From: Kiritimatiellia bacterium
GTDB taxonomy: Bacteria; Verrucomicrobiota; Kiritimatiellia; RFP12; JBMNHG01
Assembly (NCBI GenBank): GCA_050950285.1
Contig: JBMNHG010000011.1
Location: forward strand, 366,794 to 386,793
Length of the DNA: 20,000 nucleotides
Direction of reading: 5' to 3'
The position numbers were made by a program, and so were the translations under genes. Of the stretch, positions 799 through 18,297 are shown piece after piece (positions within the stretch are counted from its first letter, which is position 1; the number at the start of each line of letters is the position of its first letter). The notes below the pieces were generated by a model. It searched no databases and had not been told where the DNA came from. It saw only the letters and a program-made list of their open reading frames with translations.

Positions 799-863
799 CC
801 CCCCGGGGGGCCCGGTTCTCCGGTCTCCTCCGTCAAACACGGGGGGCAGGCTGCCCCCCTACA
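799..863. repeat. GC-rich palindromes between convergent genes (GTAG-type REP-like hairpin or terminator-like)
   Basis: CCCCCCGGGGGG at 799-810 and GGGGGGCAG-G-CTGCCCCCC at 841-859. On the minus strand the latter reads GTAG-GGGGGCAGCCTGCCCCCC and overlaps the TAG stop of the WG-repeat gene. No poly-U tail. Confidence 0.35.
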
Positions 864-2421
864 TCCCCTCCCGATCCAAGAATCCGGCGTCAAAGCCGGG
901 ATGGCGGGCGGGATCCCAGCCGTAGCGCAGGGGTTCGCCCCGTGCATCCATCCCCCATTCCATCCCATCGTATTCACACGCCAGCACCTCGTTGCCGTTC
1001 TCGTCGACCAGTCCCCATCGACCGGCGCGCCGGACGGGATGGAGTCCGTTCCATGGACGCCCCGAGGCCTCGAACCGCGCCTTCCATGGCCGGTCGGCAT
1101 CGGCTTGGGCCGGGGTGTCGCCGGCAGCGGCACGCAAGGCGCCAGCACCGTCTGTCCATTCGTCGAGTTTGCCCTTCCACCTCTTGTGCACCGCAGGGGT
1201 TGCGTCGAGCAGGTGGACCTGGTCGCCGCGTTGTCCGGCCAATCCTGCCTCCCACGGCATCAGCCGCTCGTACTCGAATGGCACCAGCACCCGCCCCGAG
1301 GCCAGATCAATGACGCCCCACTTGCCTTGTCGCATCGCGAGTGCATGGGCGTCGGACGCCGGGGCCAGCGAGACCAGGCGTTCATAGCGCGCCGTATCCC
1401 GGAATCCGCCGCGGGCGGGGTCGAGCAGGCCGGCGCGCCCCTCGCTCCACCCCGCCCAGCATCCCGGCGCCAGAGCCTCGATGCGCTCGTAGACGCAAGG
1501 CACCTGCTCCTGTCCGTTCGTGCCCACCAGCCCCCAGCGGCCCGCCGCGGACTGGGCCATCCACCAGTGGCCTGTGGCTGCCGGCGGCGGTTCGAGCGCG
1601 GCATAGCGCGGCGCGACGCAAAGGTGTCCGCCGACCGTCATCAACCCCCAGCGGTTCTCCTGGCGCACGCTGACCACGCCGCCGCATGGGACGCCGAAGT
1701 CGTCGAAACGCGCCTCCGTAAGCAGTGCACCGTCGCGGTGCAGCAGGCCGCGCTTCCCCTTCAGACGGTAGTTCCAGATGCGCGGCTCGTCGGCAAACCA
1801 CCAGAGGTCGTCGAACGCGGGTTTGGCCACCCAGGCGCCGTTCTCGTCGATCAGCCCCCAACGCCCGGACTCGGCGGCCGGCGCGCGTCCGCCGCGGAAG
1901 GGGCGCGCCTCGTCAAACTGCGGAGCGATCTTCACGGTGCCCGTGCGATCCATATAGCCCATGTGGCGCCCCTCGGCGATCAGCAGCAGCGGATCGTCCT
2001 GCCGGAGAAAGGCGCCGGCGCGGCTCGTGCGCCCCAGCAGCCGCCCCTCGCGATTCACGTACCCATAGGCGCCGTCCGCCAGGCCGACCACCGCCAGGCC
2101 GCGCTGGAAGCACGGCAGCGGTTGCTCCGGCAGGAGGTCGGCGAGGTTGCGCATCTCGGTGTCGGCGGGCAACGGGCGGGCCTGCTCGTCGAGAAACCTT
2201 CCGGACTGGGTGCCGCCGTATCGCTCCTGCACCCAGATGCGCCCCTCGCTCCAGCGGCCGGCCGCTTCGTAGCGCGGGGCGGCCAGCAGGCTGCCATCGC
2301 CCGCGACAAACCCGGCCTTGCCGTCCCGGAACACCGGCCAGGGGTGGTCCGCCGGCGGTGCCGCCCGGCAGGCGCAGGCGAGGGCCAGCCAGAGTCCCGG
2401 CAAGGTCAACCGGTGCGTCAT
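859..2421 (-). CDS. Exported WG-repeat (KWG/WG beta-repeat) protein, 520 aa, possible lipoprotein
   Basis: About 11 units of the type G-K/R-W/Y-G-L/Y/F-I/V-D-x-x-G...P-x-Y/F-D/E (e.g. SGRWGLIDENGAWVAKPAFD, QGKWGVIDLASG, AGRWGLVDENGNEVLACEYD). N-terminal signal peptide with LALACAC. Start overlaps the upstream stop (ATGA). Confidence 0.88.
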   Translation of the reverse strand: MTHRLTLPGLWLALACACRAAPPADHPWPVFRDGKAGFVAGDGSLLAAPRYEAAGRWSEGRIWVQERYGGTQSGRFLDEQARPLPADTEMRNLADLLPEQPLPCFQRGLAVVGLADGAYGYVNREGRLLGRTSRAGAFLRQDDPLLLIAEGRHMGYMDRTGTVKIAPQFDEARPFRGGRAPAAESGRWGLIDENGAWVAKPAFDDLWWFADEPRIWNYRLKGKRGLLHRDGALLTEARFDDFGVPCGGVVSVRQENRWGLMTVGGHLCVAPRYAALEPPPAATGHWWMAQSAAGRWGLVGTNGQEQVPCVYERIEALAPGCWAGWSEGRAGLLDPARGGFRDTARYERLVSLAPASDAHALAMRQGKWGVIDLASGRVLVPFEYERLMPWEAGLAGQRGDQVHLLDATPAVHKRWKGKLDEWTDGAGALRAAAGDTPAQADADRPWKARFEASGRPWNGLHPVRRAGRWGLVDENGNEVLACEYDGMEWGMDARGEPLRYGWDPARHPGFDAGFLDREGM

Positions 2422-5201
2422 GGCGCGATCCTCAAGCCTTGGAAGATCGCCTGGCGGACAATCTCCTCGATCCGTCGATAGCCGGGCGCCATGTAGTGGA
2501 GGCCGTCGTCGTCGCTGTCGTGGGGCACGTTTTCGATGTCGGCCACAATGAAGCGCGTATGGGGATTGTTGACGGTATGGGCGCGGACCAGGTTGTTGAA
2601 CGCGCGCAGCTGCCGGTCGCGCGCGGTCGTGTAGTTGGCGTAGTCGCTTCGGATCCGGGTCAGCGTCATGGCCACGACCAGCGTTCGTCCGCGCCCCGCG
2701 CGCAGCGCCAGGATCTTGTCGAGGCCTATCTTCCAGTCGGCATAGATCTCATTTGCGCTGCGGTTCCGCGACAGGTCGTTGATCCCGATAAAGTAGAGCA
2801 CGACCAGCTCGGCCGGCTCCGTGGTGACGGCCTTGACGGGGTAGGGGCGTGTCGGCTCGTCCAGCATGCCGTTGATATGGCCGGGGCGAGAACCGGGGTA
2901 GCCGCAGTGGTCGGGTCCGTGTCCGTTTGCCGGGTGGCCCACCCAGGGGATGGCGGTGGTGAGGTCGCTCCTGAGATAGCCGCGGTAGCCCTGGAAGGCG
3001 ATGTCGTTCCAGTTGCCGTACAGCCTGTCCCACTCTTGCGGCGCGGGATAGCTCAACCAGGGGCTGTTCCATCGCGGCGTCTCTTCGGTGCCATCGCGGC
3101 GTCGGCGGAATCCGTAGGTCATCGAGTCGCCGATGGCGGCCACGGCGAGGCCGATCAGCCGCACCCGGTTCTGCACGGCAACCACGTTGCCGGAGGCTCC
3201 GCGCAACACATAATCGACCGTGACCGAGGTGCCCGCCGGCCAGGCCCCCTGCACGAGCAGCTCCATGTCCACCGCCGCGTCGGAAGCGCCGGGCAGGGCG
3301 ATTTCCGATCCCGCCGGCGCGGCGAAGCCGCCCATGCCGGGCAACTTGTAGCGGAGCCGCGCAGGCGCGCTGAAGCGGGCATGGCGGGTCAGGCCGGGCA
3401 TGTTCCCGATGCCATGGAACCGCAGTTTCGCCGGCGGCACCGTTCCCGCGAAGGCCGCCGTATAGGAGGGCAGCACCAGGACGCCGGGATCCGCCAACTG
3501 CGCCCGAGGCACTTCCGCGACCCCCGCACCGCGACCGGCCGCCCAGGCATCGACACTCGTGGCGAGCGCCGGATCGATGACGGGCGTCGTGCCATCCGGC
3601 AGGACGCGCGACTGGATCCAGATCGTGGCCGTGCGTGACGTATCGAGCGGCGCAATCCCCGGCGGAACGAGGGCGCCGGACACATGGGTGCCGAGCAGGT
3701 CCTGCGGGTCTTCGATCGCCAGCGCCGTGCCGCCGGCGCCCTCGACCCGCGCCTCGTAGTCCGGATCGGCGAAGCCGTTGGCGGCGCGCACACTGCCAAG
3801 GTGGCCGAGGGAGACGCGATAGCGCGCACCGATCACGAGCGATAGCGTCTGCGTCTGCACCACGCCATAGGCGGTGTTCTGGAAGGTGAAGGAGCGCGTG
3901 TCGCCGGAGATGGCCTCGATGTGCATCTCGTAGGCCTCGGTGGCTCCATCCAGTCCGGGGTCGCCCAGTACGAAGTTGACGGGCGCCAGCAGGTTTTGCG
4001 AGGCCACGCCGCCATCACCGATGGGATTGGCTCCCCTGGCGATCTCGCATGCATCGCTCCATCCGTCGCCGTCGCTGTCGGCCAGGCGCGGCCGGCTGCG
4101 GTGGAGACGCTCCGCCAGGTTGGGGAGCCCGTCGCCGTCGCCATCGCCTTCCAGGCCATGGATGCCGGTGGCGTCGTAGGCCAGCAGGCGCGCGGCGACC
4201 TCGTAGCCGTCGCCCAGCATGTCGCCGTCGCTGTCCCAGTAGAAGGGGTCGAGCCGTCCGTAGAGAAACTCCGTCATCACATCGAGTCCGTCGCGGTCGA
4301 CATCGCCGGGGTTGTCGGGCGTTGCCGGATCGAGCCTGTGTTCGGGGAGGCTGCCCGGACGGTGGGCATAGAAGAACTCGACGCCGTCGGGGATGCCGTC
4401 GCCGTCGCTGTCGGCGTTCGCGGGGGAGACACCATGTAGCGGAACCAGCAGCAGCGCCGCGCCGGGCGCGAGCTTGTCGCTGAAGCACCACCATCCGCGC
4501 TTGTCGCGCTGTGCGCCCAGCGTGCCCGCCGCCACGCCGCCCTGCCCATCCTCCAAATCGCGGTAGCGCCAGATCATCGAGCCGTCGCGGCGCAGCTCCG
4601 CCTGGAAGGAGATCCGCGAGTTGACCGCATTGCTAAGCCGGAGGTTTTCCCAGCCGATGACGAAGCGGTCGTCCGCAGGTGCCCCTGTCCAGACGCGGCC
4701 GCCTGCGGCCGGCTCGAGATAGAGCTGCTGCCAGAAGACGCCCAGAAAGGGGTAGGGGCCGGAAGAGGTCGCGGGCAGCGGGCGAGGCGCGGGAGAAGGC
4801 TGGCCTCTTTCGAACCCCAGCGTGCCGTTGACCCCTACCCAGATGCTGGTCCAGCTCCGGTCGCCCCATGGGAAGGCGAAGGGCAATGCAACCGGCTGCA
4901 CGTCGTCATCCACGCCGCACCAGTTCCACTCCGCGATTCCGCCGGTACCGGGATCGGCGACCCATTCGCGATCGGCGTCGCCGGTCGCGCCCCAGAGCAC
5001 CAGGCCGACGGCCTCCTCGTCGTCGGCGAGTCCATCCCAGTCCGTGTCGGTGCCGTTGAGATAGACCTGCCGCGAGATGTCATCCCAGGAACGCGCCCAC
5101 GGCGGGCCGTGGATTTCTTCGGCCGGCAATAGCGCGGGACTCAGCGCCCGGGCGCCCAGCGCAAGGCAGATGCCGGAAAGGAGATGGAAACGCCTCTTCA
5201 T
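2418..5201 (-). CDS. Secreted multidomain SGNH/GDSL hydrolase with thrombospondin type 3-like DxDxDG repeats and a NIDO-like domain, 927 aa
   Basis: Start reassigned to ATG 5201 (MKRRFHLLSGICLALGARA signal peptide, ATGA overlap with the upstream stop). Six Asp-rich repeats, e.g. DSDGDGIPDGVE and DGDGDGLPNLAE. DDD..VALPFAFPW..IWVGVNGTLGF is NIDO-like. C-terminal SGNH blocks: IGDSMTYG, GYPG, IGINDL, DGLHY. Confidence 0.85.
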   Translation of the reverse strand: MKRRFHLLSGICLALGARALSPALLPAEEIHGPPWARSWDDISRQVYLNGTDTDWDGLADDEEAVGLVLWGATGDADREWVADPGTGGIAEWNWCGVDDDVQPVALPFAFPWGDRSWTSIWVGVNGTLGFERGQPSPAPRPLPATSSGPYPFLGVFWQQLYLEPAAGGRVWTGAPADDRFVIGWENLRLSNAVNSRISFQAELRRDGSMIWRYRDLEDGQGGVAAGTLGAQRDKRGWWCFSDKLAPGAALLLVPLHGVSPANADSDGDGIPDGVEFFYAHRPGSLPEHRLDPATPDNPGDVDRDGLDVMTEFLYGRLDPFYWDSDGDMLGDGYEVAARLLAYDATGIHGLEGDGDGDGLPNLAERLHRSRPRLADSDGDGWSDACEIARGANPIGDGGVASQNLLAPVNFVLGDPGLDGATEAYEMHIEAISGDTRSFTFQNTAYGVVQTQTLSLVIGARYRVSLGHLGSVRAANGFADPDYEARVEGAGGTALAIEDPQDLLGTHVSGALVPPGIAPLDTSRTATIWIQSRVLPDGTTPVIDPALATSVDAWAAGRGAGVAEVPRAQLADPGVLVLPSYTAAFAGTVPPAKLRFHGIGNMPGLTRHARFSAPARLRYKLPGMGGFAAPAGSEIALPGASDAAVDMELLVQGAWPAGTSVTVDYVLRGASGNVVAVQNRVRLIGLAVAAIGDSMTYGFRRRRDGTEETPRWNSPWLSYPAPQEWDRLYGNWNDIAFQGYRGYLRSDLTTAIPWVGHPANGHGPDHCGYPGSRPGHINGMLDEPTRPYPVKAVTTEPAELVVLYFIGINDLSRNRSANEIYADWKIGLDKILALRAGRGRTLVVAMTLTRIRSDYANYTTARDRQLRAFNNLVRAHTVNNPHTRFIVADIENVPHDSDDDGLHYMAPGYRRIEEIVRQAIFQGLRIAP

Positions 5202-5935
5202 TTGATCATCAAGATGCTGTGGCCCGCATGTTCGAGCGAGAGATCCAGCAGTTCGGCGCGCTCCCCGCGCGTTTCGATGCGCACCAGTTCCCATGCGGTG
5301 GCGGTGGCGGCGTCGGACGGCGGCGTGTGCCATCCGGGATCGACGTCGGCCAATTCCGCCGGAGCACGCCAGCCGCCGGCATCCTCCACCTTGGCGTGCA
5401 GGAGGTGGCCGTCGGGATCCATCCGCACGATGATGCGGCAGGGGCCGCCATCGGGCGGCAGCTGCGCCGGCGCCCAGACGGGCGCGTCCATGGCGTTGCC
5501 GCGCAGCCCCCAGCGTCCGCGGTCGAGTCCGACCATCAGGCGGGACTCCACTCCGTCCAGGATGCCGTTGGTCTCGATGTTGTCGGCGCCGAAGGCGGCC
5601 CATACGGCCTGGTCGGGCCAGCCGCGCACCGTCATGACCAGCCGCACGGCGCGATTGTCGCCCGCGCCTGGAGCCTCGAAGTCGCAGCGATGATGCGACA
5701 GCACATGGTGCGCCTGCGTATTGCGCAGGCTTCCACGGGCGATCGCGACGCTGTCGAAGACGCCCGGCAGACGCCACTCCGCGAGTTCGCGCAGCGGCAC
5801 GTGGACGTCCTGTGCCGGCCACGGCAGCTGCCAGCTGTCGGCATGCAGCGCGCCGGCCAGCGACAGCACGCCCAGCAGACTGGCCGCGAGCAGCGTGGCG
5901 CGGTGCCGCGGGGGAAGGTTGTCAGTTGACCACAT
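5198..5935 (-). CDS. Hypothetical exported protein, 245 aa
   Basis: Signal-peptide-like N-terminus (RHRATLLAASLLGVLSLAGALHA), normal composition with Trp/beta-rich character, stop overlaps the next ATG. Confidence 0.75.
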   Translation of the reverse strand: MWSTDNLPPRHRATLLAASLLGVLSLAGALHADSWQLPWPAQDVHVPLRELAEWRLPGVFDSVAIARGSLRNTQAHHVLSHHRCDFEAPGAGDNRAVRLVMTVRGWPDQAVWAAFGADNIETNGILDGVESRLMVGLDRGRWGLRGNAMDAPVWAPAQLPPDGGPCRIIVRMDPDGHLLHAKVEDAGGWRAPAELADVDPGWHTPPSDAATATAWELVRIETRGERAELLDLSLEHAGHSILMIK

Positions 5936-6057: not shown

Positions 6058-6204
6058 TCCATGGCGCAATTTTGCACTGGCTTCCCCGGGTGCCGCGACG
6101 GGCGCTGATGAAGGGAAAGGCCGTCAGGACATCGCCCCGGTGCGGTTGTCCGCGCCGGCAATGCCGTGTGCCGGCCGCAGGCCGAGAAGAGGAGAAGAAA
6201 CGAC

Positions 6205-7068
6205 ATGGACGAACGTGTGCGCGCCATCCTCCGGAAGCATCAGCTTTCGGAAATCACGGAACACCACATCTACCTCCAGTTGGCGGCCCGCCAGAAGGAT
6301 GCCGGCAACCGCGCCGTCCTGGAGCGGATCGCGGCCGACGAAAAACGGCACGCCGCGATCTGGCAGCGATATACCGGCGAGGCGATCGCCCCCGACCGGG
6401 GCAAGGTCCGGCGTTACGTCTGGATCTGCCGCCTGTTCGGCCTCGCCTTCGGCACCAAGCTCATGGAGCGCGGCGAGAACCGTGCCCAGCGGGCCTATGG
6501 GAAACTCCCGGCGTCCATTCGCGAGGCGGAGGCGATCCGGCACGACGAGGATGTCCACGAGCAGGCCCTGCTGAACATGATCGACGAGGAGCGGCTGCGG
6601 TACATCGGTTCCATCGTGCTGGGCCTGAACGATGCGCTGGTCGAATTGACCGGCGCGCTGGCCGGCCTGACACTGGCGCTGCGCAGCACGCGGCTGATCG
6701 CGATGACCGGCAGCATCACCGGAATCGCGGCCGCCCTTTCGATGGCCGCCTCGGAATACCTCTCGACCAAGACCGAGGGCGGGCAAAAGCATCCGGTCAA
6801 GGCGGCCGTCTATACCGGGGTCGCCTACATCCTGACCGTGGCGCTGCTGATCCTGCCCTACCTGCTGCTGTCGAACTATCTGATTGCTCTGGGCTGCACG
6901 CTGGCGATCGCGCTGGCGATCATCGCCGCGTTCAACTGCTACATTTCCGTGGCCCAGGACCAGCCCTTCGGACGTCGCTTTGCGGAAATGGCGACGCTGA
7001 GTCTCAGCGTGGCCGCCATCAGCTTCCTGGTCGGCTTCCTGCTGCGCGGCCTCGGCGTGGAAAGCTGA
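6205..7068 (+). CDS. Rubrerythrin/ferritin-like N-terminal domain + VIT1/CCC1 transporter (MbfA-like iron exporter), 287 aa
   Basis: RBS AGGAG (6190-6194) before ATG 6205. Di-iron ligand motifs SEITEHHIY, DEKRH, ERGE, DEDVHE. VIT1 motifs IVLGLNDALV and AAALSMAASEYLS, followed by further TM helices. Confidence 0.9.
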   Translation: MDERVRAILRKHQLSEITEHHIYLQLAARQKDAGNRAVLERIAADEKRHAAIWQRYTGEAIAPDRGKVRRYVWICRLFGLAFGTKLMERGENRAQRAYGKLPASIREAEAIRHDEDVHEQALLNMIDEERLRYIGSIVLGLNDALVELTGALAGLTLALRSTRLIAMTGSITGIAAALSMAASEYLSTKTEGGQKHPVKAAVYTGVAYILTVALLILPYLLLSNYLIALGCTLAIALAIIAAFNCYISVAQDQPFGRRFAEMATLSLSVAAISFLVGFLLRGLGVES

Positions 7069-7132: not shown

Positions 7133-8506
7133 TTATCCGAGGCGATTCCCTTCACTGGGCGCACCGTCTGGGCTTCTTGCGGTCGAGGCAGACCGGACTT
7201 TCCCGATCGTCAGCACCATGAAGATCAGGGACAGGATGAGCGCGGAGAAGAAGAAGCTGGCGGCTCCGCCGGCGACACCGTAACTCCGCACGGCAAATGG
7301 GGTGAAGGCGTGGCTTGCCGCAACCGCGAGCAGGATGCCGATCAGGCAGGCGGTCTGGCGGCGGCGGATGATGAGGATCGACTGGAAGACGTAGTACGCA
7401 GCGACCAGGGAACCGCCGACAATCAGCAGACACAGGGCGTTTCGGTACGGCGTCAAGTCGATCCCGTAGATCAGCGAAAGCACCGGCGTGCCCCAGAAGT
7501 AGGCCAGTATCAGGGTCGGCATGGTGAACGCCACGATCCAGGCGAGCTGCTGGCCGATCTGCCGGCGGAAGCCTCGCATGTCTCCTTTCTTGCTGGTAAG
7601 CGCCAGCCGGGTCATCGCCGGGCGGAGCACGAAGCTGGAGAGCAGGACCACGAGGAACGACAGCATGAACAGCGCGTTGTATTCGGTCATCCGCCGTTCG
7701 TCCAGAAACCGGTCGATCGTGTAGCGGGAGAGGTTGTTGAGGTAGATGAAGAGGAAGGCGTTCGTGGCCAGCGGCAGGCACGCGAGGAACAGCTGGCGCT
7801 GCTTGCGGAACGAAGTGCGGAGGTTGAGCCGGGCGAAGGAGGGGATGAGCAGGGCGTCCATGCCGATCAGCAGCAGCCAGTAGAGCAGCGCCATCCAGGC
7901 GAGCGCGGCGAACAGGTCCCGCGTGAGCCAGAGCGCCACGCCGAACAATCCCATCGGCAGGAGGGTCTTGAAGAACATCCCCTTCGAGGCGATGTCCAGT
8001 CTGCCAAGTTGCTGGTAGCGCCCCTCGAAGACATCGGAAAAGGACTCGCCCGCCCGGAGGGCGAGCAGCAGCAGGATGGCGATCGTCTTGTCGCGCCCCA
8101 CGCCGGTCGCGGCGATCCAGGCGGCGCCTGCGGCGCCCATCAGTCCGACCGTCAGCATCCGCGAGACGAGGTAGTCGCCGAACGAGTAGGTCTCGTCCAC
8201 GTCCGACACCTGGAAGGGGCGCACCTGGAAGAGGCCGATGGTGATCAACTGCTGCGAAATGGCCAGTGCGATGCTGAACACGCCGCCCCAGTAGGGGCCC
8301 TGCTCGCCAAGGAGCCGTACGACGAGCAGCAGCAGGACGAACGAACTGGCGCTGAAGCAGCCCCCGGAGAGCGCCGTCCAGAAGTAGGTGCGCCGCGCCA
8401 GCGCACCGGGACGTTCGAGGCGGAAGAAGCGCAGCACCCAGCCACCGACGCCGGAGGGCGGGTCGCGGGGCGGCAAGGGAGGCAGCGCGCTTTCCACCGT
8501 CTTCAT
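7133..8506 (-). CDS. Wzx/MOP-superfamily polysaccharide flippase-like membrane protein, 457 aa
   Basis: Start reassigned to ATG 8506 (ATGA overlap with the upstream stop). About 12 hydrophobic segments. Motifs RPFQVSD, YLVSR, ESFSDVFEGRYQQLGRLD, PLATNAFL..YLNNLSRYTID and YGVAGGA are typical of this flippase family. Confidence 0.85.
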   Translation of the reverse strand: MKTVESALPPLPPRDPPSGVGGWVLRFFRLERPGALARRTYFWTALSGGCFSASSFVLLLLVVRLLGEQGPYWGGVFSIALAISQQLITIGLFQVRPFQVSDVDETYSFGDYLVSRMLTVGLMGAAGAAWIAATGVGRDKTIAILLLLALRAGESFSDVFEGRYQQLGRLDIASKGMFFKTLLPMGLFGVALWLTRDLFAALAWMALLYWLLLIGMDALLIPSFARLNLRTSFRKQRQLFLACLPLATNAFLFIYLNNLSRYTIDRFLDERRMTEYNALFMLSFLVVLLSSFVLRPAMTRLALTSKKGDMRGFRRQIGQQLAWIVAFTMPTLILAYFWGTPVLSLIYGIDLTPYRNALCLLIVGGSLVAAYYVFQSILIIRRRQTACLIGILLAVAASHAFTPFAVRSYGVAGGAASFFFSALILSLIFMVLTIGKVRSASTARSPDGAPSEGNRLG

Positions 8507-9777
8507 GTGATTCGGGCGTTGTAGCGGGAGGGATAGAGCCACTTCTCCCGCAACCGGGCATAGCGGGGATACTCCGGCGAGTACTTGTACCAGGGGAAGC
8601 GGGGGAACTTGAAGGCCTTGCCCCGATGGTCGCGGACCACGTAGTCCGGATCGTAGGCGCCGTCCAGGACGCGGATGCAGGCGGTTTTGGCCTCGGCGGC
8701 GGTGCCGGCCACCCGGTTGAGGGCGGCGCGGAAGGTGCGGCCTTGGCCCGATTCGTCATCGACCAGCAGGACTTTCCGCCCCCGGATCGACCTCGGGCAG
8801 TCGCCGAGCACGACCGGCTCGTTGCCGTAGATGGCGTCCCGCAGGAAACAGGCGCCGATGATGTCGTCCGTGTCGAGGTTGCCGACACGGATTTGCCGGT
8901 GGGTGATGCGGATGGTCTCGAACGGCAGGCCAAGGGCCCGGGCCGCGTGGAAGGCGGGAAACAGCCCGCCGTTGGCGATGCCGACGACGATCTCGGGTTC
9001 GTAGCCGGAATCGCGCACCTTCGCGGCGAGTTGCACGGCAAGCCGCTCGACCTCCTCCAGGCTGAAGAACGATCCGCCCGTCAGGCGGAAGGCCGCCCGT
9101 TGCAGCCTGGCAAAGACGCGCTCCGGCAGGGTCAGCGCGGAATACCTGCCCCAGATGCTTTTGAGGCGCAGGCATCCGCGGTAGAAGTACGAGTCCCGCT
9201 TGGCGTGGATGTTGCCCGGAGTCCACGGGAAGTTCTGCGGTGTCGGCGCTTCCGGCAGCTCGAAGGTGGCGCGGCCGACCTCCTCCGGGAAGTGCGCGTC
9301 GACGCCGGGGAGCCCGACCTTGCCGTAGCGCTCGCAGTCCGCCGCCGCGCGCCGGTCGTGCCGGGCGGAGAAGGTGCGGCAGTTGAAGACCTCGACGATG
9401 TCCGTCTGGGAAAAGGCCGTTTCATGGGCCTCCGGCTTGAGGGAGGACGGGCGCCAGGCATCGTACGGGTGCGGCAGGGCGACGATCCCGCCCTGGGTGC
9501 GGATCGCGGCGATCGTCTCCTCCACGCTCCGGCCCGGCGCGACCTCCTCCTCGAGGAAGAGGCCGATGATCTCGCCGGCGGTCGTCATGATCTCCGAGCC
9601 GACGACCGTGAGAAACTCGGGGAAGCGCTCCTGGAAGCGGAGCGCGCCCTCGATCGTATTGTGATCGGTGATGAACAGGCAGTCGATTCCGGCGGCCTTG
9701 GATCGGCGCGCCAGTTCCGGCAGCGTGATCCTTCCGTCGCCGGAATAGATCGTGTGGACATGGAACATGCACTTCAT
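8503..9777 (-). CDS. PHP-family phosphoesterase fused to a type I phosphoribosyltransferase, 424 aa
   Basis: Residues 1-190 carry PHP motifs HVHT (H6,H8), D14, ITDHN (H39), GSEI (E62), PHPYD (H103), EVFN and GVDAH (D160,H162). Residues 236-400 carry PRTase motifs IVVGIANGGLFPA, KVLLVDDESGQGRT and PDYV...FPW. Confidence 0.88.
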   Translation of the reverse strand: MKCMFHVHTIYSGDGRITLPELARRSKAAGIDCLFITDHNTIEGALRFQERFPEFLTVVGSEIMTTAGEIIGLFLEEEVAPGRSVEETIAAIRTQGGIVALPHPYDAWRPSSLKPEAHETAFSQTDIVEVFNCRTFSARHDRRAAADCERYGKVGLPGVDAHFPEEVGRATFELPEAPTPQNFPWTPGNIHAKRDSYFYRGCLRLKSIWGRYSALTLPERVFARLQRAAFRLTGGSFFSLEEVERLAVQLAAKVRDSGYEPEIVVGIANGGLFPAFHAARALGLPFETIRITHRQIRVGNLDTDDIIGACFLRDAIYGNEPVVLGDCPRSIRGRKVLLVDDESGQGRTFRAALNRVAGTAAEAKTACIRVLDGAYDPDYVVRDHRGKAFKFPRFPWYKYSPEYPRYARLREKWLYPSRYNARIT

Positions 9778-9831
9778 CGTGCTGCGTCATTTCGGCCCTT
9801 GGCAGCAGGGCACTCGCGTTTACGGGCCCCG

Positions 9832-9860
9832 ATTGTAGCCAAGCCGGGCGAGCGATTCAA
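9832..9860 (-). promoter_or_regulatory. Putative sigma70 promoter TTGAAT-N17-TACAAT for the PHP-PRTase/flippase operon
   Basis: -35 at 9860-9855 and -10 at 9837-9832 with an exact 17-nt spacer, about 55 nt upstream of ATG 9777. Confidence 0.6.
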
Positions 9861-10091
9861 GCCCGCCGGCAACCGGATGGCAATGCGCCGGACTCCCGGG
9901 TACGCGGAGCGAGCATGGGGAGCGGCCGAGGCACGAGCGACATCGCGCGCGGCGCGGTCCGTCCGGATTGCGTTTCGATGTGACAAACACGTGGGTTTGT
10001 GGGATACTTGCATATCAACATCGAACAGTCTCCCACACACAATTCCATGAGTGTAGCCGCTAAAATTGTGCCAAAGCATGCGGAAGCAGGC

Positions 10092-10901
10092 ATGGCTCGC
10101 CGGACACGCACGCAGCCCAAGCGTCGGCATGTTGGCGTTGCGAGGATGATATGGGACATGGCGCGGAATGATTTCCGCGCCAGGTTCGCCGGCTCCTATT
10201 TCGGCATCATGTGGGTTCTTGCGCAGCCGATAGCGACCATCCTGGTGTTCTGGTTCGTCTTCCAGGTTGGTTTCCGGGTTGCGCCGACGGCCGAGGGTGT
10301 GCCTTTTGTCTTGTGGCTGGCCGCAGGACTGACCCCCTGGTTTTTCTTTTCCGAGGGCCTGATGACTACCACGTCATCCTTCACGGACTACTCCTATCTG
10401 GTGAAGAAGGTCGTGTTCCGCATCGAGCTGATCCCCGTGGTCAAGGTTGTCTCGGCCTTCTTCTTCCATCTGGCGTCCGTGCTGGTGCTCCTGCTGCTTG
10501 CCACGCTGCTGGGCTCCCCTCCGTCCATCTACTGGCTGCAGCTTCCGTACTACAGCTTCTGCATGATCGCCCTCGTCCTTTCGCTGGGACTGCTGACTGC
10601 CTCGGTGTTGCCCTTCTTCCGCGACCTCAACCAGCTTCTCGCCATTGTGTTGCAGTTCGGCATGTGGCTGACGCCGATCCTCTGGCGCGTCGAGATGGTT
10701 CCCGAACAATACCGCTGGGTCTTCAAGCTGAATCCCGTCGGCTACATCGTCGAGGGCTACCGCGATGCGATTTTCGGCAGGATCTGGGTCTGGCAGCACT
10801 GGGCGACGACGCTCGGCTTCTGGGCGGTCACGATAGCCCTGTGGGCCTTTGCCCGCAACGTCTTCCGCCGGACGAAACCCCATTTCGCGGACGTGCTCTA
10901 G
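10092..10901 (+). CDS. wzm: ABC-2 polysaccharide export permease
   Basis: NDFRARFAGSYFGIMWVLAQP, GLTPWFFF, YLVKKVVF, FFRDL, WLTPILW, KLNP, YRDA and C-terminal HFADVL. Start is uncertain (ATG 10047, 10092 or 10146). Confidence 0.93.
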   Translation: MARRTRTQPKRRHVGVARMIWDMARNDFRARFAGSYFGIMWVLAQPIATILVFWFVFQVGFRVAPTAEGVPFVLWLAAGLTPWFFFSEGLMTTTSSFTDYSYLVKKVVFRIELIPVVKVVSAFFFHLASVLVLLLLATLLGSPPSIYWLQLPYYSFCMIALVLSLGLLTASVLPFFRDLNQLLAIVLQFGMWLTPILWRVEMVPEQYRWVFKLNPVGYIVEGYRDAIFGRIWVWQHWATTLGFWAVTIALWAFARNVFRRTKPHFADVL

Positions 10902-10908
10902 GGTGACC

Positions 10909-12213
10909 ATGCAAACCGAATACGCCATCCGCTGCGAGCATCTGGGCAAAGTCTACAACCTCTACGGCCATCCGATGGAGAGGCTCAAGGAGGCCTTGAA
11001 CTGGCGCGGACGCCGCTACAGCCGGGAGTTCCATGCGCTGCGCGACGTCTCGTTCGAGGTCAAACGCGGCGAGACGCTCGGCATCATCGGGCGCAACGGC
11101 TCGGGCAAGTCGACCCTGCTGAAGATTCTGGCGGGGGTTCTGACCCCGACCAGCGGCCGTGTCGACGTCAGGGGCCGCGTCTCCTCGCTGCTGGAGCTCG
11201 GCGCGGGGTTCAACCCCGAGTTATCGGGACTGGAGAACGTCTTCTTCCAGGGCACGCTGATGGGTTTTTCCCGCGACGAGATGCAGGAGCGGCTCGATGG
11301 CATCCTTGCCTTTGCGGACATCGGCGACTTCATCCGCCAGCCGGTGAAGCTCTACTCCAGCGGCATGTTCGTTCGCCTCGCCTTCGCCTGCGCCATCAAC
11401 GTCGATCCGGACATCCTGATCATCGACGAGGCTCTGGCCGTCGGAGACGCACGGTTCCAGATGAAGTGCCATCTCAAGATCGACGAATTCCGCGAAAAGG
11501 GGAAGACCATCCTGCTTGTTTCGCATTCTGGAAACGACGTGGTGAGCTTGTGCAGTCGCGCAATCTGGCTGGATGAAGGCGCGGTTCGCGCCGAAGGCCA
11601 GGCGAAGCGCATCGTCGAGGAATACTCCGCGTGGATGGTGCATGACGTCGGGGTTCTGGCTCCGCCAGCATCGGAGGCAACCGCGAAAGAGGGTGGCGAT
11701 GAGTTCGATCTGGTTCCGATTCCGCCTCATGCGATGATCACCGGAGAAGGTGGTGCAGCCATCGTGGCCGCAGGGCTGTTCAACGCCCAGGGTCGGCGGA
11801 TCACCGTCCTTCATGGGCCGGGCGCCGTCCAGATCGTCATGAAGGTGACCGCCGCCGTTCCTCTGAGAATGCCCTACTACAGTTTTCAAATCGTGAACGC
11901 CCAGGGCATCCGCCTGATGGGATGCAATACCGCCGTCCTGAATGCCGGGCCGCCGGCGCTGGCCGCAGGCGAGACTGTGGTGGCGAGCTTTTCCTTTACG
12001 ATCCCCGAAATCGAGAACGGAACCTATCTCATCGCGCTCGGCATCGTCGACGGGACGTCGAGCAGTCACATCCGGCACCAGCAGGTGGCCGACGCCTATG
12101 AATTCCAGTTTGTCAGCGGAAGCGATTTCCAGAAGCAGAGCGTCCTGCTCAAGCTGCCGGAGTGCAAGTTCTCCGTCAACGCAGAAAACCGGAGACCGGA
12201 TGTTTCCCTGTGA
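10909..12213 (+). CDS. wzt: Polysaccharide ABC transporter ATPase with C-terminal Wzt_C carbohydrate-binding module, 434 aa
   Basis: Walker A GRNGSGKS, signature YSSGM, Walker B ILIIDEALAVGD, H-loop VSH. About 170-aa beta-rich C-terminal extension (GEGGAAIV...GTYLIALGI). ATG lies 7 nt after the wzm stop. Confidence 0.93.
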   Translation: MQTEYAIRCEHLGKVYNLYGHPMERLKEALNWRGRRYSREFHALRDVSFEVKRGETLGIIGRNGSGKSTLLKILAGVLTPTSGRVDVRGRVSSLLELGAGFNPELSGLENVFFQGTLMGFSRDEMQERLDGILAFADIGDFIRQPVKLYSSGMFVRLAFACAINVDPDILIIDEALAVGDARFQMKCHLKIDEFREKGKTILLVSHSGNDVVSLCSRAIWLDEGAVRAEGQAKRIVEEYSAWMVHDVGVLAPPASEATAKEGGDEFDLVPIPPHAMITGEGGAAIVAAGLFNAQGRRITVLHGPGAVQIVMKVTAAVPLRMPYYSFQIVNAQGIRLMGCNTAVLNAGPPALAAGETVVASFSFTIPEIENGTYLIALGIVDGTSSSHIRHQQVADAYEFQFVSGSDFQKQSVLLKLPECKFSVNAENRRPDVSL

Positions 12214-12280
12214 ATCCACCCGGATCAGCGTTCCGGACCGCTGCTGGTGAAAGAATGGATGAGAACCATCCGTCCGCCCT

Positions 12281-14890
12281 GTGGCAAACCTTCTGGACAT
12301 GAACGAAGAATTGAAAGACGACTACAATCCCGATGCCCTGACCGCAGTCAGGCCCGCAGGCGATGACTTCGACATGTTGGTCACGCCCAGGTTTGTGGAC
12401 GTATATGCCCACGGATACGAGACTCTTTCCACTCGAATCACGCGGAAGCATCTCTCACAAAAGGATCTCTTCATCGACGTCGGCGCCCACTACGGCTACT
12501 ATTCCCTGCTTGCGGCTGCGGCAAATCCCACGCTCAGGGGCATCGCGATCGAACCCGTCTCCGAAAACCTGCAGGTGTTGCAACGGAATCTCGAATTGAA
12601 CCATGTTGATCAGAACCGCTTCACCTGCATCAACGCCGCCGTCTCATCCAAACCGGGACGTATTTCTTTCTGCAAGTCGGAGGCGTCCGACAATGGCAGT
12701 GTCTATCCTCATCCGGGTTCGGGGATGATCGACCGCATCGAAGTCGCAGCTGTCTGTCTCGACGATGTCGCTGCCCAAACCCCCGCGAACCGCATATTCA
12801 TCAAGACCGCCACGAACGGCCATGAGCTGGAGGTGTTCAAGGGGTTTTCACGGACGCTGGCTTCCGACAGGGACGTGACGATTCTCCTGGAAATGAATCC
12901 GAAGATGGCGAAGATTGCCGACACCAGCGTCATGGAGATTCTCGACTATCTGCGTGCCAGATCCTTAACCCTTTTCGCCATCGACGATCACGAGGGGTTG
13001 CTCTATCCCCTGGACAAACCGGCTAACGTCGCCCTGATGGAAGCCCGCCACGAGTCTTCCTGCTACAACGTGATCGCCGTCCGTGACATTCAGGCGCTGT
13101 CCGTGATGCTCTTCTCGCATTCGTCGCATTTGGCGGGTGCGGAGCGCACGCTGGTCGACCTCGCCGGCGGACTGGCCTCCCGCGGGATCCTCTGCACGGC
13201 CGTGCTGCCCGCCCCCGGCCCTCTGCGAGAGAGATTGACGAATGCCGGATGCGCCGTTCTCGTGCCTTCCGGCAACCGGTCCATGCAAGACGGATGGTGG
13301 TGGGCGAGGCGCGGACTGGAAGCCATCCGGTGCGAAATGGCCGCAGTCCAGTCGTCCGTCTCGGAGGAACTGATTCCGATGGTGGAGAAAATCTCGCCGG
13401 ACGTGATCCTCTCCCAGACGATCGCCTCCCCCTGGGGGGCTCTGGTCGCCGAAGCGACCGGCATCCCGCACGTCCTTTCCGCCCGGGAATACGGGGAGCT
13501 GGACCACGGAATGTCCTTCTTCCTCGGCTTCCAGGAAAGCCTCCAGGCGCTCTATCAGGGAAGCGACGCCGTCTTCTGCGTTTCCGGAGATGTAAAAAGG
13601 GTGCTGTTTGAAGAGGATCCCGAGGGGAAGGCCGAGGTCGTCTACAGCAACATCGGCATCCCTACGCCAGTCGCACGGCCAGCTCGACCCGACAACACCC
13701 CGACCTCCTCCACGAGCGGGGGGCGGATCCCCTCGGTCGGCATCTTCGGAACCGTTATCGAGAGCAAAGGACAGATCGACCTCGTCCGCGCCTGCATCGA
13801 ACTGGCCTGCGGCGGCATGCCGCTGCGCTGCCACATCGTGGGCGTGATCGGCGATGAAGGCTACGCGGAGGCGATCCGCGGCGAGGTGGCGCAATCAGGA
13901 TTTGCCGATCTTGTGGTCTGGACGGAATTTGTTGAAGACCCCTATCCCCTCATGCAGAGCATGGATGTGGTCGTCTCCTGCGCGAAGCGGGAGGCATTGG
14001 GGAGAACCCTGCTGGAGGCGGCCCTGCTAGACAGGCCGATCGTGTATGCGCGTTCCGGGGGGTTCGCCGAGATCTTTGTCCACGGGGAGCATGGTATGGC
14101 ATACGAGCCCGGCGATTCCCACGCCCTTGCCGGGGCGATCCGGACCGTCCTCCAGAACCCCGAAGATACACGTGCCAGGACGAAACGGGCACGGGAATAC
14201 GTGCGGAACCGCTTCGCATCGGACGCATTCGTTGAAACAATCCTCAACGGACTGCGAAAGGCCGCGCGTCAGGCCGGCAGATCGTGTGTCCGGCGAAGAG
14301 CAGTCGGCGGCCTTTTCTTGAAGGAAGGGCTCCCCGTGCCGCAAAAGATCTGGACGCGGCCTAAGCTGTACCATGCCGCCGAAACCGGCGAGTTTACAGA
14401 ATCACACACGATATATGCCGACGAGATGCCGATCGGGCCCTTCGTGGTCGCCTTCGATATTCCGGTCTCCGGGTGCGCGCGGTTGAGGTTCGACTACACC
14501 GAGCGCCTACCGATCTCCATGACGCTCGCTTCGGCTCGCATTTGGACTGAAAACGGCGGTCTGCTGGCTCCCGAGGAGATCCTCCTCGAGACCAACGGCA
14601 TCGCCACGGGCAAGCGGTCCTGGAATTTCTTCACGACAGACCCCCAGTTGGTTCTCCGGCTGAAGCGTCCCGCCGCGAGGATTCAACTGCTAGGCGAAAC
14701 CAGGCTCCTGAGTGCCGCCTCCCTGCTTGATGTTACCAGGCGGCTGAATGATTTTACCAGACAACAGCAGGTACGCATCAACGCTTTGGAAACCAGTCTG
14801 AGCTGGCGTCTGACACAGCCGCTACGCCGGATGGTGTCAAGCCTTCGGGCGATTTCCGTAGGTCGGCGCCGTGAAAGAGATGATCGATGA
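12281..14890 (+). CDS. FkbM-family methyltransferase + GT4 glycosyltransferase + beta-rich domain + C-terminal coil/SWRLTxPLR motif
   Basis: FIDVGAHYGYY and AIEPV (SAM binding). SHSSHLAGAER, GTVIESKGQ and the EX7E motif REALGRTLLEAA (GT4). TDPQL and ETSLSWRLTQPLR at the C-terminus. Start is GTG 12281 or ATG 12299. Confidence 0.85.
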   Translation: MANLLDMNEELKDDYNPDALTAVRPAGDDFDMLVTPRFVDVYAHGYETLSTRITRKHLSQKDLFIDVGAHYGYYSLLAAAANPTLRGIAIEPVSENLQVLQRNLELNHVDQNRFTCINAAVSSKPGRISFCKSEASDNGSVYPHPGSGMIDRIEVAAVCLDDVAAQTPANRIFIKTATNGHELEVFKGFSRTLASDRDVTILLEMNPKMAKIADTSVMEILDYLRARSLTLFAIDDHEGLLYPLDKPANVALMEARHESSCYNVIAVRDIQALSVMLFSHSSHLAGAERTLVDLAGGLASRGILCTAVLPAPGPLRERLTNAGCAVLVPSGNRSMQDGWWWARRGLEAIRCEMAAVQSSVSEELIPMVEKISPDVILSQTIASPWGALVAEATGIPHVLSAREYGELDHGMSFFLGFQESLQALYQGSDAVFCVSGDVKRVLFEEDPEGKAEVVYSNIGIPTPVARPARPDNTPTSSTSGGRIPSVGIFGTVIESKGQIDLVRACIELACGGMPLRCHIVGVIGDEGYAEAIRGEVAQSGFADLVVWTEFVEDPYPLMQSMDVVVSCAKREALGRTLLEAALLDRPIVYARSGGFAEIFVHGEHGMAYEPGDSHALAGAIRTVLQNPEDTRARTKRAREYVRNRFASDAFVETILNGLRKAARQAGRSCVRRRAVGGLFLKEGLPVPQKIWTRPKLYHAAETGEFTESHTIYADEMPIGPFVVAFDIPVSGCARLRFDYTERLPISMTLASARIWTENGGLLAPEEILLETNGIATGKRSWNFFTTDPQLVLRLKRPAARIQLLGETRLLSAASLLDVTRRLNDFTRQQQVRINALETSLSWRLTQPLRRMVSSLRAISVGRRRERDDR

Positions 14891-17088
14891 AAACGCCTGT
14901 ATTCCGTTTTCTTAAGTTGGTTTTTAAGTTGGGTCGAACCAGTTGTTGGCTTATGCGTCAACAAGTCCGTCTCAGTGGTGGCATCTGGCCTGCCGTTCGC
15001 TACGCGGCAAAGCGAATACGCTCGCTTGGAATTCGCAAGTCGTTTCACTTGGTTTTAGATTATTCCCGTTCGTCAACGGGCATTGTCGAAACTCCCATTG
15101 ACTTGGCGGCGGGGGGGCAAGCGGTGGCATCAGAAGGAGGCTGGTCGGGATACGCGCTGCTGTCCGACAAGTTGTCCACACCCCGTCCTTCTCCGATTTG
15201 TTCTCCCGTGAAGCTTGCAGAGGTACCAGAAGAAAGATTCAACGAGGTATTGGAGCGCTTCAACTTTCCAGAGTACCACAAGCCCATTGTGTCGATCATC
15301 ATACCGTTCCACAACCAGGTCAAGTATTCTGTGGAGTGCCTGCTCTCCTTGTCGGAAACGGACGATGCCAGCACGCCGTATGAAATCTTGTTGGCGGACG
15401 ATGCTTCGAGTGAAAACAGTGTCACAGGACTTATGAATGTCAGACATGTCCGTTATCTCCGCAATCCGAGCAATCTAGGGTTTCTACACACCTGCAATCG
15501 GGCGGCGTCCGAAGCCAAAGGCCAGTATCTCGTATTTCTCAATAACGACACGCAAGTAACCCCAGGCTGGCTTAGTGCTTTGCTCGAAGTGTTCAAGGAA
15601 TGCCCCGATGCGGGTGCTGTTGGGCCTAAAGTGCTCTACCCGAGCGGGCACTTGCAGGAAGCCGGAGGGCTCTTGAGGGGCGACATGACAACGGAAATGG
15701 TCGGCGTGAACGACAATCCCGATCATCCGTGTTTCAACATCCGCCGTGCAGTTGATTATTGCTCCGGCGTTTGTCTGATGGTTGAACGTGAAGTATTCCT
15801 GTCTGTCGGCGGATTTTCCGACGAATTTGCGCCAGCTTACTACGAGGACGTGGACCTTTGTTTGAAGTTGAGGACGACCGGGCGTCGAATCTACTATCAG
15901 CCAAAATCGGTCGTCGTGCACCATTTGAGCAAGTCGCACGCGACTCCTGGCAACACCCTGAAGAACAAACTGATTTGCCGAAACCGTCAAAAGATGGTTG
16001 AGAAATGGCAAGCCTTCGTCGATCATTCGGCACGGACACGTCAAATCGCCTTTTACCTGCCACAGTATCATCCCATACCGGAGAATGACCGCTGGTGGGG
16101 CAAGGGCTTCACCGAATGGCGAAATGTTGCCGCCGCCACGCCTGTTTTCGATGGGCATGTTCAACCAAGACTCCCTGGTGATCTGGGTTTCTACGACCTT
16201 CGTGTGCCGGAAGTCATGGAGCAACAGGCTGAATTGGCCCAACGGTATGGTATCACTGGGTTTTGCTACTATTACTATTGGTTTGGAGGCAAGCGGCTTC
16301 TGGAAATGCCGCTAGAGCGAATGCTGGACACGGGGAAACCCGACTTCCCCTTCTGCCTGTGCTGGGCAAACGAAAACTGGACTCGCCGCTGGGACGGTCA
16401 AGACAAGGAAGTTCTGCTCGCGCAATCCCATTCGCCCGATGATGACGAAGCGATCATTCGCGACTTGATCCGTTATTTGCGCGATCCCCGGTACATCCGC
16501 ATCAACGGGCGCCCCCTGCTGTTGGTGTATCGAACGTCGCTGCTGCCCGACATGCGCAAAACCGGCGAACGGTGGCGCCAGGCATGCCGGAGGGAAGGCC
16601 TTGGGGAAATCTATTTGGCAGGTGTAGAGTCGCTTGGCGTCAATTTAGAAGGCGATCCCGGTGTTGATGGAATCGATTTCACGGTTGCATTCCCCCCGCA
16701 TGGCACGCCCTATTCCAATCGATCCAAGACGCTGAAGCTCCGGCGGGAAGCGCTCGTCTACAACTACCTTGACATGGTCCAACACTTTGTAAACCGGAAG
16801 AACTTCAGCCCGAAGCGCTTTCTAAGCGTCTGCCCTGGATGGGACAACACACCCAGGCGGAAGACGGGCAGCACTGTTTTCACGGGTTCAACACCCGGCT
16901 ATTTTCAAGCGTGGCTGGAGTGGACGATCGACCAGACGCGCCGCTTCCACCAAAATGACGAACGGCTGGTTTTCATCAACGCCTGGAACGAATGGGCGGA
17001 AGGCGCCGTGTTGGAGCCGGACTCCCTGAATGGCCACGACTATCTGGAAGCAGTTCGCAATGCCATCCACAACTCGACCGTGCGATAA
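14887..17088 (+). CDS. GT2 glycosyltransferase + WbsX/GH99-like domain, 733 aa
   Basis: VSIIIPFHN, ADDASS, NLGF, FLNNDT, YYEDVDLC (GT2). IAFYLPQYHPIPENDRWWGKGFTEW, GFCYYYYWF, CWANENWTRRWDG, PGWDNTPR, FINAWNEWAEG (WbsX-like). ATGA overlap with the upstream gene. Confidence 0.92.
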   Translation: MKTPVFRFLKLVFKLGRTSCWLMRQQVRLSGGIWPAVRYAAKRIRSLGIRKSFHLVLDYSRSSTGIVETPIDLAAGGQAVASEGGWSGYALLSDKLSTPRPSPICSPVKLAEVPEERFNEVLERFNFPEYHKPIVSIIIPFHNQVKYSVECLLSLSETDDASTPYEILLADDASSENSVTGLMNVRHVRYLRNPSNLGFLHTCNRAASEAKGQYLVFLNNDTQVTPGWLSALLEVFKECPDAGAVGPKVLYPSGHLQEAGGLLRGDMTTEMVGVNDNPDHPCFNIRRAVDYCSGVCLMVEREVFLSVGGFSDEFAPAYYEDVDLCLKLRTTGRRIYYQPKSVVVHHLSKSHATPGNTLKNKLICRNRQKMVEKWQAFVDHSARTRQIAFYLPQYHPIPENDRWWGKGFTEWRNVAAATPVFDGHVQPRLPGDLGFYDLRVPEVMEQQAELAQRYGITGFCYYYYWFGGKRLLEMPLERMLDTGKPDFPFCLCWANENWTRRWDGQDKEVLLAQSHSPDDDEAIIRDLIRYLRDPRYIRINGRPLLLVYRTSLLPDMRKTGERWRQACRREGLGEIYLAGVESLGVNLEGDPGVDGIDFTVAFPPHGTPYSNRSKTLKLRREALVYNYLDMVQHFVNRKNFSPKRFLSVCPGWDNTPRRKTGSTVFTGSTPGYFQAWLEWTIDQTRRFHQNDERLVFINAWNEWAEGAVLEPDSLNGHDYLEAVRNAIHNSTVR

Positions 17089-17094
17089 ACAACC

Positions 17095-18219: not shown

Positions 18220-18297
18220 GCCGTTCACGCTTGCATCCAACGCCACGTTTTGTTTTGCCATTGCCGCCGACGAGTTTGCCGAAGCCTCTTGAGACAA

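Follow-up and report, generated by a model that had tools for sequence, protein, structure and literature searches.

A PHP-phosphoribosyltransferase fusion protein accompanying a membrane glycosylation cassette in Kiritimatiellia: a candidate two-step ribofuranosyltransferase

In this work we analysed a stretch of 20,000 nucleotides (hereafter the window) from the genome of a Kiritimatiellia bacterium (assembly GCA_050950285.1, contig JBMNHG010000011.1, positions 366,794 to 386,793, forward strand), in which a single gene encodes a PHP phosphoesterase domain followed by a type I phosphoribosyltransferase (PRTase) domain. It was found that this fusion is a real and rare enzyme architecture standing in a coherent glycosylation cassette, and it is apparently undescribed. 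Very probably the protein serves a set of two family 2 glycosyltransferases (GT2a and GT2b) and one membrane protein of the GT-C fold, and we lean slightly towards its being a cytoplasmic two-step ribofuranosyltransferase, which would act on a lipid-linked oligosaccharide.

Architecture and active sites of the fused protein

An earlier note on this DNA had described a PHP domain with retained metal-ligand motifs and a type I PRTase domain in one polypeptide; this was borne out by the open reading frame (ORF), the Pfam matches, the AlphaFold2 model and the alignment of homologues, each domain being supported both by hidden Markov models (HMM) and by structure prediction. PHP and PHP_C (PF02811/PF13263) matched with E 4.6e-8 and 1.7e-5 respectively, both above the curated cut-offs, and Pribosyltran (PF00156) matched residues 242-368 with E 3.5e-11 and 43.1 bits against a cut-off of 26.3. 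The model, based on an alignment of 21 homologues, reached a predicted local distance difference test score (pLDDT) of 88 and a predicted template modelling score of 0.87. Its residues 1 to about 195 superpose on PHP structures (3e38: Z 17.2, root-mean-square deviation (rmsd) 2.8, 185 residues aligned) and residues about 229-400 on purine PRTases (4trb: Z 14.6, rmsd 3.0, 137 aligned). The N-terminal half has the (beta/alpha)7 fold of PHP enzymes according to both Pfam and the structure match, and the C-terminal half has the core fold of type I PRTases together with the vicinal-acid loop for phosphoribosyl pyrophosphate (PRPP).

A frameshift, a read-through or a chance fusion was ruled out by 23 clusters spanning at least 96% of the query with 43-100% identity, one of which (P0003, 100%) is the query's own. 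These full-length clusters belong to 352 matches, the others of which, judged on the best 120 listed, match the PHP half only. The search for shorter or split forms gave one fragment and one weak match, and longer fused forms were absent from 2274 candidates, which is weak evidence. No transmembrane segment was predicted in the fusion; the two helices of the linker may be a membrane-docking element, the hydrophobic moment alone not being distinctive.

Those full-length members that carry an organism name belong to Kiritimatiellia/Verrucomicrobia and to Desulfonatronum, among them the cultured species Desulfonatronum zhilinae (P0019). The fusion was detected in 6/61 close relatives, 4/401 phylum-level and 9/401 class-level genomes, each count including the source genome, and after merging of duplicates 12 fusion genomes remained (G000, which is the source genome, G014, G023, G040, G045, G053, G422, G967, G986, G951, G1006 and G433). 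A quick tree built from 79 PRT domains placed the 12 fused domains on one branch (SH-aLRT 99), apart from the housekeeping PRTase of this genome. GT4 domains and dephospho-CoA kinase were also seen as fusion partners of the same PHP subfamily (P0064-P0122).

The PHP ligands H6, D14, H39, E62, H103, E129, D160 and H162 are invariant in 21/21 aligned fusions and H8 is kept in 20 of them, so that the fusion has the nine-ligand His/Asp/Glu trinuclear pattern of PHP phosphoesterases as laid out in the available text of PMC11656708. On the PRTase side the PRPP loop D340-D341-x4-G346-x-T/S348 is conserved in all 21 aligned fusions, position 342, directly after the DD pair, is Asp or Glu in 25/25 fusions, and position 344 (DD+3) is Gly, Thr or Ser in 21/21 and never Asp. 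In purine PRTases a hydrophobic residue after the DD packs under the purine and an Asp at DD+3 deprotonates it; by sequence alignment the archaeal-type enzyme 1vdm has Val after the DD and Asp two places further, and the fusions have neither of these marks of the salvage enzymes (HGXPRT/GPT). The pyrophosphate-loop (PPi-loop) Arg of 1vdm (A-R-G-G), a further mark of purine salvage, is also replaced (Asn in 12, Gly in 5 and Ser in 4 of the 21). The PRT site is lined by further invariant residues, acidic as well as basic, and the enlarged flexible loop with its D302-T-D-D305 motif may be a candidate acceptor-binding insertion. Read from the alignment, these features argue against purine salvage and fit a polar acceptor, and they are no proof of catalysis. 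Purine salvage in this genome is covered by other genes; it has a separate salvage-type PRTase and also a UPRTase-like gene.

The glycosylation cassette and the surroundings of the fusion gene

GT2a was found in 12/12 fusion genomes, not more than 6 kb from the fusion gene in ten and elsewhere in two. It is a protein of about 385 amino acids with four C-terminal membrane helices and a conserved DxD, its best PDB match is the dolichol-phosphate-mannose (DPM) synthase 5mlz (E 5.9e-13), and it appears to be a polyprenyl-phosphate-sugar synthase-like enzyme, akin to DPM synthase, GacI and WpsA. GT2b is soluble and about 330 amino acids long; a gene of this type lies in the fusion locus in 9/12 genomes, once as a 27%-identical substitute, and elsewhere in two, while the contig of G951 breaks off behind GT2a. 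Within the 61-genome set GT2b occurs in the six fusion genomes and in G017 and G007.

The third partner, a membrane protein of about 800 amino acids with an invariant G-D-E-x-H-Y motif and a C-terminal beta-sandwich, was matched in all 12 fusion genomes: on the same contig stretch in eight and elsewhere in four, once only as a fragment at a contig end. Full-length copies in the 61-genome set are confined to the six fusion genomes and G017, with short partial matches in two other genomes. No sequence match to it was obtained in Pfam, NCBIfam or PDB. Its predicted model has an overall pLDDT of 63 and superposes on Pmt1 with Z 21.1 (rmsd 3.9, 348 aligned); the best 20 matches of the fold search comprise Pmt1, AglB, ALG12, ArnT, AftD and their kin with Z from 21.1 to 11.9, below which Z falls to 8.2, and Foldseek supports the GT-C fold weakly. 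According to the model, this partner is a protein of the GT-C fold, whose family has no name.

12/12 fusion genomes carry GT2a and a GT-C match; the homologues do not sit in nucleotide-salvage or random contexts, the outcome which the earlier note had regarded as contrary to a role in glycan synthesis. In the genome studied here the GT2a-GT2b-GT-C trio lies on another contig (G000:C2:997863-1002503). At this locus (L104:9843-14510) a GDP-mannose dehydratase and a reductase-like gene were noted at a distance of 2.4 kb, and a GtrA-like gene at 7 kb. No conserved small gene was seen that could encode a small membrane activator of the GacJ/WpsB type, the gene calling having skipped ORFs below 50-70 amino acids.

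G017 (93% complete) gave no match to the fusion, and its locus (L126:3264-14338) has Wzx-GT2a-GT2b-GT-C with LicD, IspD, an NAD epimerase, a cytidylyltransferase and a class V aminotransferase upstream. A Wzx without the fusion indicates that the flippase belongs to the cassette and that the fusion fills an exchangeable "decoration" slot; the G017 cassette is probably a variant for ribitol-phosphate and/or amino-phospho decoration.

The ATGA overlap of the fusion with the downstream gene, which the earlier note had pointed out, was confirmed (Table 1). The same holds for the promoter of its own: the site TTGAAT-17-TACAAT is near consensus, promoter-like sites exceed those of shuffled sequences (2 versus 0.3 +/- 0.4), and TTGAAY-17-TAxxAT-like hexamers with varying spacers stand upstream of 4/7 orthologues inspected by eye (L024, L025, L105, L018), L025 and L105 being near-identical. 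As to the flippase identity of the downstream product, Atlas groups it with polysaccharide flippases (feature score 0.99-1.00; structure TM 0.88 to PF01943 clusters), but Pfam, NCBIfam and PDB sequences gave no match, so that the "Wzx-type" label comes from Atlas only. The coupling to the flippase, which the note had put forward, was not supported as a dedicated partnership: Wzx adjoins the fusion in 7/12 fusion genomes, all close relatives (at least 75%), it was not found in the five divergent ones by a search run without a positive control, and it is present in the fusion-less cassette of G017. In G433 an LPG_synthase_TM gene replaces Wzx beside the fusion. Convergent with the flippase gene, a rubrerythrin-like/VIT1 gene with the architecture of an MbfA-like iron exporter (6166-7068) was noted, which was not seen beside the fusion in the other loci.

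Table 1. Coordinates of the fusion gene, its parts and adjoining elements in the window
Feature	Positions	Strand	Remarks
PHP-PRTase fusion gene (P0001)	8503..9777	-	424 aa, ORF without internal stop
PHP phosphoesterase domain, residues 1-190	9208..9777	-	nine metal ligands
Linker, two basic amphipathic helices, residues 197-232	9082..9189	-	net +3 each
Type I PRTase domain, residues 233-424	8503..9081	-	C-terminal family motif R-F-P-W-x-x-Y-S-P-x-Y
Enlarged flexible loop, residues ~290-320	8818..8910	-	invariant D302-T-D-D305
PRPP-binding loop, residues 336-348	8734..8772	-	D340-D341 invariant
Wzx/MOP-like polysaccharide flippase gene (P0002), 457 aa	7133..8506	-	Atlas features and structure
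ATGA stop/start overlap, fusion with flippase gene	8503..8506	-	read in sequence
Sigma-70-type promoter-like site	9832..9860	-	-35 at 9860-9855, -10 at 9837-9832

The divergent wzm/wzt/glycosyltransferase cluster, on which the earlier note had also relied, is indeed present beside the fusion according to Pfam, but its functional link was not upheld. Such genes were matched in none of the other fusion loci (1/12 genomes in total), WbsX occurs in 0/5 other fusion genomes and in 21/55 fusion-less genomes of the 61-genome set, and the GC content at third codon positions (GC3) is 0.61-0.82 in the cluster versus 0.89-0.90 in the fusion and Wzx genes. The cluster was rejected as a partner by its absence from the other fusion loci, its lower GC3 pointing the same way. 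It occupies positions 10080-18219 with wzm, wzt (Wzt_C), FkbM-GT4, GT2-WbsX and GT4 genes, along which GC3 falls from 0.82 to 0.61, and it probably represents an ABC-type O-antigen cluster that was acquired; a WbsX gene that scores equally is present in G034, in a frame of equal length (734 amino acids).

Additionally, in the AT-richer stretch 18250-20000 two ORFs for membrane proteins, without family match, overlap in different frames (18250-19074; from 18875 onward), and they may be one frameshifted GT-C-like gene. On the other side a WG-repeat protein (859-2421), an ORF of 1134 amino acids (2418-5822) in which repeats of the DxDGDG type and an SGNH-like end were recognized by eye and, within 859-5935, an ORF of 245 amino acids without family match were recorded.

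Proposed pathway and alternative explanations

The earlier note had suggested PRPP-dependent transfer followed by dephosphorylation for envelope glycans; the co-occurrence with GT2a and GT-C supports this. The domains and their folds, the conservation of the ligands, the gene order and the co-occurrence are observed here; the chemistry itself, together with the order of the steps, the acceptor and the linkage, is what we infer. GT2a would put a sugar on polyprenyl phosphate and the soluble GT2b would extend it, after which the PRT domain would move ribofuranose-5-phosphate (Ribf-5-P) from PRPP onto the lipid-linked sugar and the PHP domain would hydrolyse the 5-phosphate; Wzx or another flippase would export the product, and the GT-C protein of about 800 amino acids would transfer it to an acceptor of the envelope. 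In this genome the kit is split between the window (fusion and Wzx) and the trio on the other contig. In our estimate it is an evenly balanced question whether a canonical type I PRTase of the salvage type has taken on O-ribosyl transfer to polyprenyl-monophosphate-linked sugars, with a PHP phosphatase as its partner, which would be an independently assembled ribofuranose route for bacterial glycans.

A profile search of 1.84 billion representatives revealed a subfamily of stand-alone PRTases of about 200 amino acids (P0127-P0160, L111:79-699), whose PRPP loop has three acids and which end in a P-W-x-x-x-S-P tail. The subfamily belongs at least in part to DPANN archaea: among 20 members consulted, of which 18 lie outside the fused clade, one bears an organism name, Pacearchaeota; P0158, a PRTase of the same profile, is fused to a HAD domain (probability 99.1). 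Four Patescibacteria matches among 401 genomes were rejected as generic PRTases without the family tail and the N-terminal extension. Stand-alone PHP genes were followed in 73 loci, none of which has a PRT of the fusion's profile, and in two of them the PHP gene adjoins a UbiA-type decaprenyl-phosphate phosphoribosyltransferase (DPPRS): L085:2930-6973 holds GT-C, a DPPRS above the cut-off, PHP and LPG_synthase_TM, and L089:8166-12806 a DPPRS-like gene under the cut-off, an LPG_synthase_TM-PHP fusion, an epimerase and a PRPP synthetase. PHP, DPPRS and epimerase are also listed together in this order, by annotation only, in the gene table of a haloarchaeal element in PMC4866403. The HAD fusion and these gene pairs are independent hints at a recurring logic of PRT followed by phosphatase, the pairs being sites at which a phosphoribose phosphatase is required. 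In three-component pentofuranose systems PHP may act as a phosphoribose phosphatase that has so far gone unrecognised.

DPPRS as a regular partner of the fusion was not supported, since its homologues occur in 55/61 relatives including this genome, mostly without the fusion; their spread over the order suggests that lipid-linked pentose may be a lineage-wide trait. No UbiA gene was found among the scanned neighbours of the fusion loci, and the two UbiA genes of this genome lie elsewhere (G000:C11:158450-160116 and C3:581480-584216). One of the two, above the DPPRS cut-off, stands beside a DPM1-like GT2, and the other beside a GT-C-like gene recognized by its motif.

Several observations weigh against the two-step ribofuranosyltransferase. 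The fusion lies apart from the GT2/GT-C trio in 2/12 genomes (this one and G053), and the 12 genomes represent about four lineages, so that the counts overstate independence. Among known structures purine PRTases, which make N-glycosides, come nearest to the PRT half, and the replacement of the PPi-loop Arg in all 21 fusions means that PRPP turnover is not assured. The acid after the DD speaks for the proposed function, being found in all 25 fusions and in 26/34 top-ranked matches outside the fused clade (three other, five unparsed) but in 9/113 lower-ranked PRTases (98 other, six unparsed); this contrast is, however, circular in part, because the proteins behind the profile have that acid. 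The only stand-alone PRT whose context was read (L111) adjoins secY and no glycan genes. Furthermore, the 73 stand-alone PHP loci are mostly of housekeeping context (of the 68 anchored ones 28 lie by aminopeptidase P and 26 by efp), and the PHPs of L085 and L089 are not the closest relatives of the fusion PHP, ranking 28 and 62 of 68.

Undecaprenyl phosphate (Und-P), named among the acceptors in the earlier note, has become the weaker option. In this case the PRTase would ribosylate the carrier itself (Und-P to Und-P-Ribf-5-P to Und-P-Ribf) as a soluble-fold replacement of the UbiA PPPRS, and GT2b might extend the ribose; the flippase and GT-C partners are as in the three-component system of Citrobacter, related PHPs adjoin DPPRS genes, and the linker has its basic amphipathic helices. 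However, the fusion has no transmembrane segment, a DPM-synthase-like enzyme, GT2a, already provides the carrier-loading step in all 12 genomes, and DPPRS is present irrespective of the fusion, which makes carrier ribosylation quite improbable. The same presence of DPPRS weakens the idea of a non-catalytic PRT domain, which would sense PRPP or nucleotides in the manner of PyrR/PurR and gate a PHP domain whose substrate would be an intermediate of the cassette or the Und-P-Ribf-5-P made by UbiA. In its favour, the sequence matches include PyrR and ancestral PyrR, the PPi-loop Arg is absent, and the fusion PHP is the sole member of its subfamily in a genome whose DPPRS has no adjacent phosphatase gene; against these stand the invariance of the DD pair, of the loop glycine and of the T/S, as well as the further invariant charged residues lining the site, and we consider such a sensor rather unlikely.

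The product could also be a small riboside, formed on a base, amine or polyol, or an anionic Ribf-5-P that is retained, with the PHP domain cutting another ester or diester and the product entering the cassette as donor or decoration. The canonical type I fold with its FPW hood motif would suit this, PHP enzymes can be mono- or diesterases according to the available part of PMC11656708, and the alternative module of G017 installs phosphodiester substituents via LicD; an enzyme activating a small product is not conserved in the fusion loci, however, and this explanation seems unlikely. Very doubtful is a function in recycling of by-products or nucleotide salvage for the cassette, in which PHP would be a nucleotidase or bisphosphatase and the PRTase would salvage the base: NCBIfam matches to RNase AM, 3',5'-bisphosphate phosphatase and PyrR (all weak and far under the cut-off) and the label "hypoxanthine phosphoribosyltransferase" given to homologues in some sources point to it, but the hydrophobic residue after the DD and the DD+3 Asp of 1vdm are missing, the genome has salvage genes of its own, and the fusion is rare among its relatives and tied to one cassette.

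Significance and comparison with known systems

The literature used for comparison consisted of the available parts of PMC11127046, PMC10299916, PMC11294581, PMC11194591, PMC9574508, PMC11656708, PMC9798254 and PMC4866403. In agreement with the earlier note, no characterised enzyme of the PHP-PRTase architecture surfaced and no PHP-PRTase glycan enzyme is described in the literature searched, which covered few subscription papers and did not extend to the 2022 gPRT paper or to the supplementary lists of outlier Ribf loci; the word "PHP" is absent from the main text of PMC11127046, PMC10299916 and PMC11294581. The characterised ribofuranose routes in bacterial glycans use gPRT/CriT or a UbiA transferase, together with a HAD or an unrelated (Rv3807c-type) phosphatase, and according to the Discussion of PMC11127046 (2024, PNAS) all beta-Ribf residues that its authors identified are accounted for by known PRPP enzymes.

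If the proposed function is true, this route would escape searches that rely on HAD-PRP, gPRT or UbiA; the fusion would provide a new marker of glycan ribosylation for lineages that have been little studied, and glycoengineering would gain a small soluble tool enzyme. The stand-alone PRTases and the PHP-DPPRS pairs would carry the route further into bacteria and archaea, PHP would join the phosphoribose-phosphatase families, and a function would be suggested for PHP genes adjoining DPPRS genes. The family is rare and known mostly from metagenome-assembled genomes; the homologue of Desulfonatronum zhilinae could allow a check of the glycan.

Domain by domain, the closest known proteins are purine PRTases of the archaeal type (1vdm of P. 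horikoshii; 4trb and 4z1o of Sulfolobus), which match the C-terminal half best (E 9e-10, Z 12-15), and small PHP phosphoesterases (TM0559 2anu, BVU_3505 3e38, RNase AM), which share the fold and the trinuclear ligand set (Z 16-17). The fusion differs from the former by the acid after the DD, by the lack of the DD+3 Asp and of the PPi-loop Arg, by a loop insertion of about 20 residues and by its N-terminal basic helices, and from the latter, with which it has 19-28% identity, by being fused to a PRTase.

For gPRT/PRP (the Klebsiella/Thermobacillus prototype and Salmonella STM0726) and for CriT/CrpP of Haemophilus influenzae type b (Hib) Bcs3, the available parts of PMC11127046, PMC11294581 and PMC10299916 propose a two-step scheme in one polypeptide, in which Ribf-5-P is transferred from PRPP to a sugar and the phosphate is then removed, the core of CriT being PRTase-like. 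Their phosphatase, however, is a HAD enzyme, whereas that of the fusion is PHP by HMM and fold. Moreover, in the description of CriT the vicinal DD is replaced by residues from two loops and the enzyme is called a new GT fold, whereas the fusion, compared with it by description, keeps the vicinal DD and apparently the canonical type I fold, its listed structure matches being canonical PRTases. The gPRT/CriT structures are not among the 50 matches listed in a wide fold search, which by itself does not exclude a relation. With a PHP phosphatase and an apparently canonical transferase fold the fusion is not a member of gPRT/PRP or CriT/CrpP. The described enzymes act on polymers of the ABC and Wzy pathways, whereas the fusion sits with a polyprenyl-monophosphate-sugar/GT-C cassette.

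The three-component systems (Citrobacter youngae with ORF15 PPPRS-PRP, a MATE flippase and GT136; mycobacterial Rv3806c/Rv3807c) share with our case the PRPP donor, the dephosphorylation, a MOP-type flippase and a GT-C with a C-terminal beta-sandwich. Their PRPP enzyme, however, is a UbiA membrane protein and their donor is Und-P-Ribf, whereas no UbiA belongs to the fusion cassette and two GT2s are constant in it; the fusion itself is no PPPRS.

In organization the cassette resembles the four-component systems WpsA/B-WpsC-F-WpsG-WpsJ of Lactococcus and GacI/J/K/L of Streptococcus, which in the available text of PMC9574508 have a GT-A polyprenyl-phosphate-sugar synthase, cytoplasmic extension, Wzx and GT-C; the corresponding components were found here as GT2a, assigned by its sequence, as the GT-C protein and, in this genome and in 7/12 altogether, as Wzx. 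LicD/cytidylyltransferase accessories, as seen in G017, are also mentioned there in Wps/Gac-type loci. The difference is that those are Gram-positive rhamnan side-chain systems, for which no PRPP-using or PHP component is described in that text. If the function proposed for the fusion is true, the same two-step logic as in the known ribofuranose systems would have arisen again from different folds.

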